Below, piece by piece: positions 7,879-22,881 of a stretch of DNA of 32,000 nt; within the stretch, counting starts at the first letter, position 1, and each line of letters opens with the position of its first letter. The stretch covers positions 1 through 32,000 of the forward strand of contig JAITRB010000005.1 in NCBI GenBank assembly GCA_031288595.1, read 5' to 3'. A model generated the notes under the pieces. It did not search any database. It saw nothing but the letters and a program-made list of their open reading frames with translations, and was not told where the DNA came from. The translations under genes and the position numbers were made by a program. This DNA comes from Puniceicoccales bacterium. Lineage in GTDB: Bacteria > Verrucomicrobiota > Verrucomicrobiia > Opitutales > JAIRLG01.

Positions 7879-7974
7879 GTGGCTGTCTTTGCCCCCTGAG
7901 AAATTTTTCTGGAAAATTTCTCAGGGGACAGCCTGCTCTGCAGGCGGATTCCTTTGGAATCCAAAGACAGCCAC
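7879..7974 (-). repeat. Four-way-junction intergenic element, copy A (family 1)
   Basis: Closing stem 7879-7891 GTGGCTGTCTTTG pairs with 7962-7974 CAAAGACAGCCAC. Long hairpin 7893-7907/7913-7927 (15 bp). GC hairpin 7931-7936/7940-7945 (GCCTGC/GCAGGC). Hairpin 7947-7952/7956-7961 (GATTCC TTT GGAATC). Reverse orientation relative to copies C-E. Confidence 0.85.
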
Positions 7975-8038
7975 AAAAAAATGCCCTTTCGGAACAATCT
8001 CTAAGCAAGCGACAGTGGGAACCCGTCCTTGGAGGCCT

Positions 8039-8112
8039 TGGTGCGGGCAGACGGAATCGAACCGACGACACCAGCTTGGAAGGCTGAGGTTTTACCGCTA
8101 AACTATGCCCGC
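8039..8112 (-). tRNA. tRNA-Gly (anticodon UCC)
   Basis: The reverse complement GCGGGCATAGTTTAGCGGTAAAACCTCAGCCTTCCAAGCTGGTGTCGTCGGTTCGATTCCGTCTGCCCGCACCA folds as a cloverleaf. 7-bp acceptor, anticodon loop CTTCCAA, TTCGATT T-loop, encoded CCA. One U-U mismatch in the T stem. Confidence 0.85.
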
Positions 8113-8246
8113 GGGGTCCGGGTCGGAGGGAAGGCGTTTTGCCGGGGCGGTCAAGCCTCTTTCCTCAGGAGTAAAGGGGGATAAATAGCCATGAAAAGCC
8201 TCATTTTAAGTTGGCCAAAGCGACAATGTCCCCTTGAATTTCCTCC

Positions 8247-20430: not shown

Positions 20431-21534
20431 ATGCTGCGAGTGGGGATTGTTGGATTGCCCAATGTGGGGAAGAGCACGCTCTTCAATGCCCTGACGCGGA
20501 CGTACAAGGCCGCAGCGGAGAATTATCCTTTCTGCACCATTGAGCCGAACGTGGGCATGGTCGAGGTGCCGGACGGGCGCCTCGAACCTCTTAGGAAAAT
20601 GGCCAAGACGGAGAAGGTGGTACCGGCCGTCATCGAGTTTGTCGATATCGCCGGTCTGGTAGCCGGTGCATCCCGAGGTGAGGGGCTCGGTAACCAATTC
20701 CTGGCCCACATCCGCGAGGTGGATGCCATCCTGCAGATCGTCCGCTGTTTTGAGGATGAGAGCATCGTCCACACGATGGGAGTGGTGGATCCGCTGCGGG
20801 ACATCGGGATCATCCGTACAGAACTGCTGCTGGCTGATCTGCAATCAGCGGAGGGCCAGCTGGAGAAATGGCGCAAGAGGGCCCGCAGCGGCGAGAAGGA
20901 GGCGGTGGAGCAGGTGGGATTGCTGGAAAAAATCTGCGCCCAGCTGGACCAGGGGAAAGCCGTAGGGACCTCGGCGCTATCCGCTGAGGAACGGGCCCAG
21001 GCAGAAGTTTTCCATCTCCTGAGCTCGAAGCCGATGCTCCTCGCCTGCAACGTGGCCGAAGGGGATTTAAGTGATCCCTCGGCCAATCCTCATGTGGCCC
21101 AGGTGGGACGGCATCTCCGCGAGGAGGACGAGGGAGAGCTCTGTGTCGTGAGCGCCCGTATCGAGCAGGAGCTTACCGCCCTGTCTCCGGAGGACGCCCG
21201 GACCTATCTGGAGGCAATCGGTGTGGGGGATAGCGGCGTGGCCCAGCTGATCCAAAAGAGCTATGCCCTGTTAGGCCTAGCCTCCTATTTCACGGCCGGC
21301 GAGAAAGAGGTGCATGCCTGGACTTTTAGATGGGGGATGAAGGCACCAGCCTGTGCGGGTCTCATCCACGGCGATTTCGAGCGGGGATTCATCCGGGCGG
21401 AGGTGATCGGTTACGAGGACCTGAGAAGGGCCGGCTCGGTGGCCCGTGCTCGAGAACTAGGCACCTATCGCCTAGAGGGCAAGGATTACGAAGTGCGGGA
21501 TGGCGATATCCTGGTCTTCCGCTTCAACGTATGA
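20431..21534 (+). CDS. ychF: Ribosome-binding ATPase YchF
   Basis: 367 aa. N-terminal VGIVGLPNVGKSTLFNALT. Conserved FVDIAGLV and C-terminal TGS-like domain (AWTF..G..AP.AAG.IH.DFE.GFIRAEV). Confidence 0.95.
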   Translation: MLRVGIVGLPNVGKSTLFNALTRTYKAAAENYPFCTIEPNVGMVEVPDGRLEPLRKMAKTEKVVPAVIEFVDIAGLVAGASRGEGLGNQFLAHIREVDAILQIVRCFEDESIVHTMGVVDPLRDIGIIRTELLLADLQSAEGQLEKWRKRARSGEKEAVEQVGLLEKICAQLDQGKAVGTSALSAEERAQAEVFHLLSSKPMLLACNVAEGDLSDPSANPHVAQVGRHLREEDEGELCVVSARIEQELTALSPEDARTYLEAIGVGDSGVAQLIQKSYALLGLASYFTAGEKEVHAWTFRWGMKAPACAGLIHGDFERGFIRAEVIGYEDLRRAGSVARARELGTYRLEGKDYEVRDGDILVFRFNV

Positions 21535-22712
21535 GGGCATTGCGGCTTCGGGACTTCCCTCTGGCTCTGGATGGGTCCCGTCCCGACTTCCTGATCATCG
21601 CGGGAGAGGCCTCTGGAGATGAGCATGCGGCCCGTATGGTAGAGGGTTTATTCTGCGAGAATCCCCAAGTGTCGGTCTATGCCTTCGGCGGGAAAAATCT
21701 CCAGGCGGCCGGTGCCCATCTGCTCTATGATCTGACGCAGCACGCGGTCATAGGCCTGTGTGAGGTTTTGAGGAATCTCGGCCTGTTCCGGCAATTGCTC
21801 GCGGCGGTCATCGACTGGGTGGCCATCCACAGGCCGCGTACGGTCTGCCTGGTGGATTACCCGGGCTTCAACCTGCGATTGGCCAAACGCCTTTTCCAAA
21901 GGGGCTTGAGCCGGAAGGGTGGCGGCGAGGTCGCGCTCTACTACTACATCAGCCCGCAGATCTGGGCCTGGAAGGCAAAGCGCCGCTTTGGGATGGCCCG
22001 CTGGCTCGACCATCTGGGGCTTATCTTTCCCTTTGAAAAGGATTTTTTCGCAGACATCCCGCTGCGGGTCTCCTTTGTCGGCCATCCCTTGTTGTGCGCC
22101 AAAGCTTCTTTCCTATCGTACGCTCCCCAGGGGGTACTGCTCCTGCTACCCGGAAGCCGCGTGGCGACCGTCCGCCGGCTCTTCCCGCTGATGCTCGAAA
22201 CTTTTCGGCGACTGCAGCCCCAATTCCCACACCTCTTAGCGGCGGTGCCGTATGCCGACGAGGGGGTGTTGGAAGAATTGCGGGGGATATTTGCAGGGTA
22301 CGAAGACCTTCGGTCCTACCTGCGATTTGTTTCCGTTTCAGGCCCAGATCTTCCCTGTGCGGCGAGCCTGATGGTCTCCGGCACCATGTCCCTCAGCTGC
22401 GCTCTGGCCGGTATCCCTGGGGTCATCACCCATAAAATCCATCCCCTGAGCTACTTCCTGGCCAGGCACTGGGTCAAGATTCCCTACATCGGCATGGCCA
22501 ATATTCTGCTGAAGCGGAAGTCGCTGCCGGAGTATATCCAGAGCGAGGCCGAGCCTTCTGCCCTGTGCGAGGAAGTCTCGCAGTGCCTGCGGGATCCCAG
22601 GAGAATCGAACAGGCGCAACAGGATGCCGAAGCCCTGAGGGCCATCCTTGGAGCACAGCCGGATCTGAAGGTGGCCGAGTGGCTCCTCACTTCGCTGGAG
22701 GAGAAATTTTAG
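21531..22712 (+). CDS. lpxB: Lipid-A-disaccharide synthase
   Basis: The LpxB-like sequence begins at MRALRL...FLIIAGEASGDEHAARMV. The ATG at 21531 overlaps the ychF stop (ATGA, 21531-21534). The track ORF start at 21330 lies inside ychF and was rejected. Confidence 0.88.
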   Translation: MRALRLRDFPLALDGSRPDFLIIAGEASGDEHAARMVEGLFCENPQVSVYAFGGKNLQAAGAHLLYDLTQHAVIGLCEVLRNLGLFRQLLAAVIDWVAIHRPRTVCLVDYPGFNLRLAKRLFQRGLSRKGGGEVALYYYISPQIWAWKAKRRFGMARWLDHLGLIFPFEKDFFADIPLRVSFVGHPLLCAKASFLSYAPQGVLLLLPGSRVATVRRLFPLMLETFRRLQPQFPHLLAAVPYADEGVLEELRGIFAGYEDLRSYLRFVSVSGPDLPCAASLMVSGTMSLSCALAGIPGVITHKIHPLSYFLARHWVKIPYIGMANILLKRKSLPEYIQSEAEPSALCEEVSQCLRDPRRIEQAQQDAEALRAILGAQPDLKVAEWLLTSLEEKF

Positions 22713-22782
22713 GGGAAAGCCTAGGTCTTACACGGGAAAGGCCGATTTGGGGAATTTCGGGCCCGGATATTTGGGCGGAGCT

Positions 22783-22881
22783 GGCGCTGTCTTTGGATTC
22801 CGGAGGAATCAGCCCGCGCAGCGGGCACCAGAGCGGCAAATGAAAAGGCCTTTTCATCTGCCGCTCTGCAAAGACAGCGCC
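22783..22881 (+). repeat. Four-way-junction intergenic element, copy E (family 1)
   Basis: Closing stem 22783-22795 GGCGCTGTCTTTG pairs with 22869-22881 CAAAGACAGCGCC (13 bp). Hairpin 22796-22801/22805-22810 (GATTCC GGA GGAATC). GC hairpin 22812-22817/22821-22826 (GCCCGC GCA GCGGGC). Long hairpin 22829-22846/22851-22868 (one A-C). Overlaps the last 9 or so codons of mutY. Confidence 0.88.

Follow-up and report, generated by a model that had tools for sequence, protein, structure and literature searches.

Six copies of a four-way-junction repeat

The window analyzed here is a 32,000-nucleotide (nt) stretch of DNA from a Puniceicoccales bacterium (assembly GCA_031288595.1, contig JAITRB010000005.1, positions 1 to 32,000 of the forward strand), and it carries six copies, A to F, of a short repeated element whose closing stem (P1) encloses three hairpins (Hp1, Hp2, and Hp3). 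A preliminary description of the window had reported six copies, each about 98 nt long and folded as a four-way junction, and alignment, pattern search, and folding z-scores all bear this out. Copies A to F are found at the expected coordinates and strands, and their alignment takes in a left module that is conserved and a right end of 10 nt; a degenerate pattern covering both ends matches the window six times, exactly at A to F, versus zero matches expected. Minimum free energies (MFE) give z-scores of −8.9 to −13.4 with RNA parameters and, for the same four-way-junction fold, −10.4 to −12.9 with DNA parameters. The copies and their surroundings, including transfer RNA (tRNA) genes and open reading frames (ORFs), are as follows.

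Copy A, 7879..7974, minus strand: follows a minus-strand tRNA gene (8042-8112) by 67 nt and precedes an AsmA-like gene by 130 nt.
Copy B, 13501..13599, minus strand: 63 nt downstream of a glucosaminidase gene, convergent with the tRNA gene at 13343-13416.
Copy C, 17633..17730, plus strand: a member of the GCTGGCTTT subfamily with Hp1 GATGCC/GGCATC, antisense between UDG-family and M20 peptidase genes (both minus strand).
Copy D, 20035..20132, plus strand: within a C-terminal extension of about 50 amino acids (aa) of ORF 19497-20141, upstream of ychF.
Copy E, 20309..20404, plus strand: 27 nt upstream of ychF, at a site filled across the whole clade.
Copy F, 22783..22881, plus strand: 70 nt downstream of lpxB, overlapping the 3′ end of an HhH-GPD glycosylase gene (22854-23942, minus strand).
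Parts of copy F: P1 5′ strand, 22783-22795; Hp1, 22796-22810; Hp2, 22812-22826; Hp3, 22829-22868; P1 3′ strand, 22869-22881.

The unit is bounded by a 10-bp terminal inverted repeat, GCTGKCTTTS ... SAAAGMCAGC, that extends outward by 3 to 8 variable complementary base pairs, and its interior holds two short conserved palindromes (6 bp, spaced by 3 nt) along with a long one that is both perfect and hypervariable. Five copies (A, B, D, E, and F) do share one P1 core, GCTGTCTTTG/CAAAGACAGC, as previously described, and copy C differs, with GCTGGCTTTT/AAAAGCCAGC. Two helix assignments in the preliminary description were mistaken: the Hp1 variant GATGCC/GGCATC, placed there in copy F, belongs to copy C, and Hp2 of copy E, given there as GCCCGC/GCGGGC, is GGTCCGC...GCGGTCC with one T·T mismatch. 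Its placing of all copies no more than about 70 nt from a gene 3′ end holds loosely in the window (the exceptions being C, which runs antisense to the two minus-strand genes around it, and the pair upstream of ychF, D and E) and fails as a trait of the family. A seventh copy at window position 26300 was considered and ruled out, the match there being limited to the first 16 nt, and the window contains no solitary Hp1 or Hp2 hairpins outside the elements.

Distribution, relatives by shape, and turnover

Applied to one genome each for 185,579 species, a strict pattern matches 47 stretches (53 copies), all of them in three Puniceicoccales-labeled metagenome-assembled genomes (MAGs). The preliminary description had proposed a covariance-model search; built from 59 copies, such a model scores copy A at 87 bits and copy C at 89.8 bits and recovers about 120 distinct sites in 316 kb, comprising the window and the loci compared with it (each designated L with a number). 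Copies are all intergenic or at ORF ends, and the density of elements is about one copy per 3 to 5 kb within one clade of uncultured Puniceicoccales. Relatives of the window ordered by LpxB identity fall at 82%, then at 62 to 65%, followed by a gap down to 51%: the syntenic loci of the 82% and 62 to 65% relatives carry elements, and the 21-kb locus of the 51% outgroup has none by either the covariance model or a structure-only scan. The earlier failure to place the repeat in a known class also stands. Only two tRNAs exceed the gathering score in an Rfam search of the window, with no family matching the elements, and nothing relevant appears at E ≤ 10 in positions 19990-20450; copy F has no BLAST match in plasmids or phages, exact-pattern scans of Joint Genome Institute (JGI) metagenome contigs (two patterns) and of IMG/VR give 0 matches, and no described equivalent of the element turned up in the literature. 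The family is real, abundant, clade-restricted, and previously uncatalogued.

The sequence family of copies A to F is one of several with the same architecture. A structure-only scan of the 32-kb window, requiring an inverted repeat (8 nt or longer) that encloses three or more hairpins with at least 80% of positions paired, returns eight elements, namely A to F and two others that form a second sequence family of the same architecture. Both had been missed by the covariance model and by the preliminary description, whose count of six is right for the first family and omits these two four-way-junction elements:

Second-family element, 25210..25309, strand not assigned: closing stem GGGCGATGGCCC/GGGCCATCGCCC around three hairpins (14, 12, and 5 bp), each with a loop of 3 nt; z-score −11.7.
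Second copy of the second family, 29749..29858, strand not assigned: closing stem GGCGCGATGGCCC/GGGCCCTCGCGCC; z-score −9.9.

The first of these has an ortholog in L049 (5728-5842) with a different middle hairpin. It also occupies the position at which the missing 5′ half of folE would be expected: this gene for GTP cyclohydrolase I (25708-26016; upstream region 25177-25707) is truncated in the window to profile positions 85-178, is wholly lost in L049, and is retained as a 195-aa gene in L050 and L051.

Beyond the window, the weaker covariance-model matches are intact four-way junctions in which every helix has a different sequence, rather than degenerate copies. P1 variants among the matches include GCTGTCTTTG, GCTGGCTTTC, GCCGGCTTTC, GCCGCCTTTG, GCTTGCCTTGG, and CGCGACGGCCC, and those of Hp1 include GATTCC, GATGCC, GATCCC, GAGCCC, GCTCCC, GCTTCC, GATTTC, and TTTTTC. 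What is shared is the plan: the closing stem encloses two hairpins with 3-nt loops, the first of 6 bp and the second GC-rich and of 6 to 8 bp, and then a long, variable hairpin of 11 to 20 bp. Many elements are directly preceded on their 5′ side by G-rich, G-quadruplex-like tracts of the form (GGGT)n or GGGTGGGTGGGCGGGG, or hold such tracts within expanded Hp2 loops (L017 2085-2345, L035, L043, L049 ~2930-2970, L009 356-498, L015 3134-3292, and L039 2611-2735); a degenerate version lies upstream of copy F in the window.

Copies have been gained, lost, decayed, dispersed, and nested at hairpin apices. The site of copy F is filled in the window, L043, and L049; in L050, L052, L054, and L055 it is empty, and the lpxB and glycosylase genes overlap there. 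Copy F encodes a new C terminus of the glycosylase, ‘ALSLQSG’ (or ‘ALSLQSG(R)’) plus the stop codon, at window positions 22854-22908. Genomes lacking copy F (L050 5436-5566, L054, L055, and L052) have an 8- to 10-bp hairpin, GAATGGCTC...GAGCCATT, around both stop codons. This hairpin is made up of the overlapping lpxB and glycosylase 3′ ends, and the insertion of copy F falls within its would-be loop, possibly by coincidence. A comparable fusion is seen at copy D, through which ORF 19497-20141 reads (tail 19986-20141), giving the protein an extension that its orthologs lack. In L032, two elements occupy an intergenic region that is empty in the window, and in L052, one lies between the BaxI and M20 genes, where the window has none. 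At other sites, elements persist in changed form. The ortholog of copy A in L032 lies at an equal distance from tRNA-Gly but differs in Hp3 and in the outer pairs of the stem; the site of copy B is also filled in L031 (5511-5602) and L052 (409-514), in the latter in the opposite orientation relative to the gene; and the ychF-upstream site of copy E is filled in L042, L048, L049, L050, L051, L052, and L054, with L055 retaining a decayed remnant only. Just upstream of the element at this site, L050 (2433-2948) differs from L054 (1899-1903) by a 516-nt indel containing another element (2830-2938) and a called ORF of 65 aa.

Dispersal is evident from cores that are 95 to 98% identical within one MAG and have flanks of near-random similarity. 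Elements are nested at the apex of an outer Hp3 in L039 (2540-2810), L004 (100-315), and a composite of the L017 type (five loci) and at the apex of an outer Hp2 in L021. A 2.4-kb two-gene segment is inverted between L007 (2704-5096) and L023 (1417-3812), with inverted copies of the GCCGCCTTTGAGCCC family at both breakpoints, and many MAG contigs terminate at elements. The relatives compared are 70 to 86% identical in DNA, at which exact empty sites are not reconstructable.

Other genes of the window include, by Pfam scans of 30 window ORFs, only housekeeping, type III secretion system (T3SS), and folate genes. The T3SS secretin and two CesT-family chaperone genes (3532-5891; 23934-24494) suggest a host-associated lifestyle of this Puniceicoccales lineage. 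Two tandem paralogous genes for family-5 solute-binding proteins (30-1646 and 1826-3433; about 70% DNA identity at an offset of 1,778 nt) account for the direct repeats labeled D1 and D4 to D6.

Pairing, arms, and flanks

Covariation is strong in the 59-copy alignment: 26 of the 40 consensus pairs vary on both sides, and 96.3% of all cells are paired, versus 76.2% in shuffles and 37 to 50% with the partners slid. The claim that structure is kept by compensatory change therefore withstands the check proposed for it, yet the result does not discriminate DNA from RNA. Template switching in quasi-palindromes, an established mutational mechanism that extends arm identity (PMC7202029, PMC3820800), can keep the arms of palindromic DNA complementary without RNA selection; strong covariation alone is no proof of a functional RNA.

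Several independent counts point to a DNA rather than an RNA signal. Among 2,515 paired positions, 2,453 are Watson-Crick (97.5%), 33 are G·T (1.3%), 22 are A·C, and 7 are other combinations, with no significant excess of G·T over A·C on the element strand (p = 0.18); when copies between codirectional genes are read in the mRNA-strand orientation, G·U and A·C are equally frequent (10 versus 10). Gene contexts of the 59 copies, called with a crude home-made gene caller, give a random orientation relative to neighboring genes (15 sense, 17 antisense), with 10 copies between divergent genes and 7 between convergent genes, and show no enrichment at gene 3′ ends. Pairing is thus symmetric and Watson-Crick, without strand or orientation bias, and on the equal G·U and A·C counts we reject a strand-specific RNA signature. 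The elements likewise lack the general marks of a cis-acting structured RNA, in that orientation is not fixed and G·U is tolerated no better than A·C. For the candidate roles raised in the preliminary description, the consequence is a division: a strand-specific small RNA (sRNA) or stabilizer in a 3′ untranslated region (UTR) is disfavored because orientation is random, 3′ ends are not preferred, and G·U does not exceed A·C, and the DNA-level options (a miniature transposable element with inverted repeats [MITE], or a recognition structure in single-stranded or cruciform DNA) are favored.

Hp3 changes in ways that preserve its palindrome. Its 15-nt tip is inverted relative to the remainder of the element in some copies, indels occur symmetrically on both arms, and in orthologous F copies three neighboring base pairs differ together. 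Identical 43-nt left modules, neutral loops included, are joined to unrelated Hp3 sequences; Hp3 therefore diversifies or exchanges far faster than by point substitution. Since template switching in a quasi-palindrome perfects the arms in one step, these changes are explained without RNA selection. Two further readings of Hp3 were rejected: the purine richness of its 5′ arm (0.69) is no strand signal, an R...Y palindrome being identical on both strands, and as a spacer-like copy of other DNA it yields only chance matches of 14 to 15 nt (364 kb, elements masked).

The flanks of the elements are mutually complementary, by 3.3 bp on average and by at least 3 bp in 74% of copies, versus 14% in the control, and at the orthologous A site the outer pairs show compensated differences between genomes. 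Three explanations are possible: the outer pairs could be part of the element, they could be a product of fold-back or template-switch synthesis (the nested case in L021 is readable as a duplication, inverted and 11 nt long, of target sequence), or insertion could target hairpin apices. Just 5′ of GCTG, the bases are variable (GTG, CTGTG, GTCG, CTTC, CC, and GGC), and positions −5 to −1 show no conservation. An intrinsic-terminator role was rejected on the flanks as well, in that a T-run lies 5′ of the element and an A-run 3′ of it, opposite to the order in a terminator, and neither strand has a U-tract after the structure. Terminator-like calls in the window (28, versus 20.1 ± 5.5 in shuffles) are not enriched, and none falls at an element 3′ end.

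Nature of the elements

The elements are a new form of bacterial intergenic palindromic repeat, the closest analogues of which are repetitive extragenic palindromic (REP) sequences and bacterial interspersed mosaic elements (BIMEs), MITEs, and the bcr1 repeats of Bacillus. REPs are single palindromes, imperfect and GC-rich, of about 20 to 40 nt with a conserved 5′ GT(A/G)G head (PMC2817692), and they are high-copy, extragenic, kept in structure, hot spots of insertion and rearrangement, and possible sources of side effects on mRNA (PMC2817692, PMC3184786). Like REP/BIME sequences (REPINs, mobilized by RAYT transposases, the cognate gene of which lies between two inverted copies), the elements are high-copy extragenic GC-rich palindromes that occur in both orientations and sometimes as inverted pairs; unlike them, they are 96 to 110 nt long, consist of a closing stem and three internal hairpins, lack the conserved head, and are accompanied by no RAYT in the part of the genomes searched (~0.36 Mb). 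MITEs have direct target-site duplications and usually form one long hairpin. The elements share with MITEs the terminal inverted repeats around a short core without an ORF, presence or absence at orthologous sites, and dispersed near-identical copies, but they lack the duplication, have inverted-complement flanks, and form a four-way junction with a hypervariable arm. As for a parent insertion sequence with the terminal repeats of the elements, no left and right modules are separated by a gene-sized insert, all orphan left modules being nested elements. Like the elements, the MITEs Correia/NEMIS, ERIC, RUP, and BOX are short, transposase-free, dispersed in intergenic regions, present or absent between relatives, fused to ORF ends, and stably folded as RNA or DNA (PMC3184786). 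In the account of bcr1 given in the same review, this repeat of the Bacillus cereus group has a branched, ‘cruciform-like’ fold with compensatory changes and is assigned to a special mobile class (PMC3184786). The likeness lies in a branched fold of independent stem-loops kept by compensatory base changes; the differences are an unrelated sequence and host phylum and the two stem-loops of bcr1 versus three here. Transcription has been reported for bcr1.

Two further systems were compared. Integron attC sites have an R″/L″-L′/R′ organization, a GTTRRRY core, and extrahelical bases and form a co-oriented cassette array next to intI. As in attC, the elements are defined by structure over sequence, have a variable palindromic center, and may lie at gene 3′ ends; they differ in having perfect stems and in lacking a recombination core, extrahelical bases, a co-oriented array, and an adjacent integrase. 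Palindrome-associated transposable elements (PATEs) derived from IS200/IS605 have subterminal hairpins and no terminal inverted repeats and lie 3′ of a conserved tetra- or pentanucleotide, and we ruled them out on the presence of terminal inverted repeats and the unconserved positions −5 to −1.

On balance, we think it probable, although far from certain, that the elements are a non-autonomous, selfish, REP/MITE-like repeat superfamily whose unit is the four-way-junction DNA fold. How such repeats would move and keep their shape we infer from the sequences. They would function as folded DNA, whether as single strands at the replication fork or as extruded cruciforms; a trans-acting enzyme encoded outside the window would recognize the shape of the four-way junction together with the conserved P1, Hp1, and Hp2 sequences; and the complementarity of the arms would be kept mainly by template switching during replication and by turnover of copies or gene conversion among them. 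Consequences for the host (tails on ORFs, structure in 5′ or 3′ UTRs, and recombination between copies) would be by-products. It is unlikely, in our estimation, that the elements go further and represent a new shape-specified class of mobile DNA, that is, sequence-unrelated, Holliday-junction-like elements with a junction- or hairpin-specific enzyme, integration at hairpin apices, inverted-complement flanks, and palindrome-preserving diversification of an arm.

Several observations weigh against a selfish mobile repeat. Neither a transposase nor a RAYT was found in the window or in the ~0.36 Mb of fragmented MAG DNA that the search covered, and none of the 234 called proteins of the loci comes from a multicopy ORF. 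In the same DNA, tblastn with approximate IS608 TnpA and Escherichia coli RayT queries gives nothing below E = 1. There is no target-site duplication, the longest direct border repeat being 0 to 2 nt, as in the control. Flanks of the T subfamily show an ordered bias (T-rich at −6 to −4, almost no A at −3 to −1, no T at +1 to +3, and A-rich at +4 to +7), which may stem either from a preferred target or from selection against acting as a terminator. The site upstream of ychF and that downstream of the glucosaminidase gene are filled across genomes whose LpxB proteins are about 63% identical, and such clade-wide occupancy could reflect a host function rather than reinsertion. Finally, the retention of one architecture by families that differ in every helix suggests long-term selection on shape.

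The elements could instead be host-useful RNA modules that work within mRNA in either orientation, blocking exonucleases, insulating cistrons, or stopping transcription, as REP and BOX elements can. The very stable folds (−55 to −85 kcal/mol as RNA, on both strands) and the strong covariation would suit such a role, as would the clade-wide persistence of elements before ychF and after the glucosaminidase gene; since the window shows no enrichment of canonical terminators, another 3′-end device is conceivable. We nevertheless consider this explanation improbable, in view of the parity of G·U and A·C on the transcribed strand and the scarcity of G·T among all pairs, the 10 of 49 contexts that are divergent, the lack of both 3′-end enrichment and a U-tract, the decay of one copy at a conserved site, and the fusion of copies to ORFs. 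Slightly more doubtful still is a role in host DNA architecture, with cruciform-prone sites that gyrase, a nucleoid protein, or a protein binding junctions would occupy and that would organize supercoiling domains. BIMEs bind IHF and gyrase, and strand-symmetric, near-pure Watson-Crick pairing is expected if both strands must fold; moreover, the spacing is dense and fairly regular (8 elements in 32 kb), and the 6-N3-6 palindromes (GATTCC NNN GGAATC and GCCCGC NNN GCGGGC) resemble sites for dimeric proteins. To our knowledge, however, there is no known partner protein, which counts against this role; the copies behave like mobile DNA in their gain, loss, decay, and nesting, and several unrelated sequence families are hard to square with one sequence-specific binding protein.

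Least credible to us, and quite unlikely, is that the elements are sites for a recombinase acting on folded DNA, as attC is, or are the target or donor ends of an IS110/IS1111-type element. Conservation of structure over sequence and a variable central palindrome, both attC traits, fit this idea, as do nested insertions at hairpin apices without target-site duplication and the inversion between inverted copies. Yet the R″/R′ core (RYYYAAC / GTTRRRY) and extrahelical bases are absent, housekeeping genes (gyrB/gyrA, ychF, and lpxB) separate the copies, orientations are mixed, and the DNA of the window and the loci contains neither an integrase nor a DEDD transposase.

The elements add an uncatalogued and very dense repeat superfamily to the poorly studied Verrucomicrobiota, with an architecture (a four-way junction, one hypervariable perfect arm, and no target duplications) unlike that of REP, MITE, or attC. 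They also hold a warning for covariation-based RNA discovery, in that nested DNA palindromes yield near-perfect ‘covariation’ without evidence of an RNA function. Within this lineage, they shape genome evolution by breaking MAG assemblies, creating ORF tails, and marking an inversion breakpoint, and their mobilizing enzyme, if found, could reveal a new mode of branched-DNA recognition.

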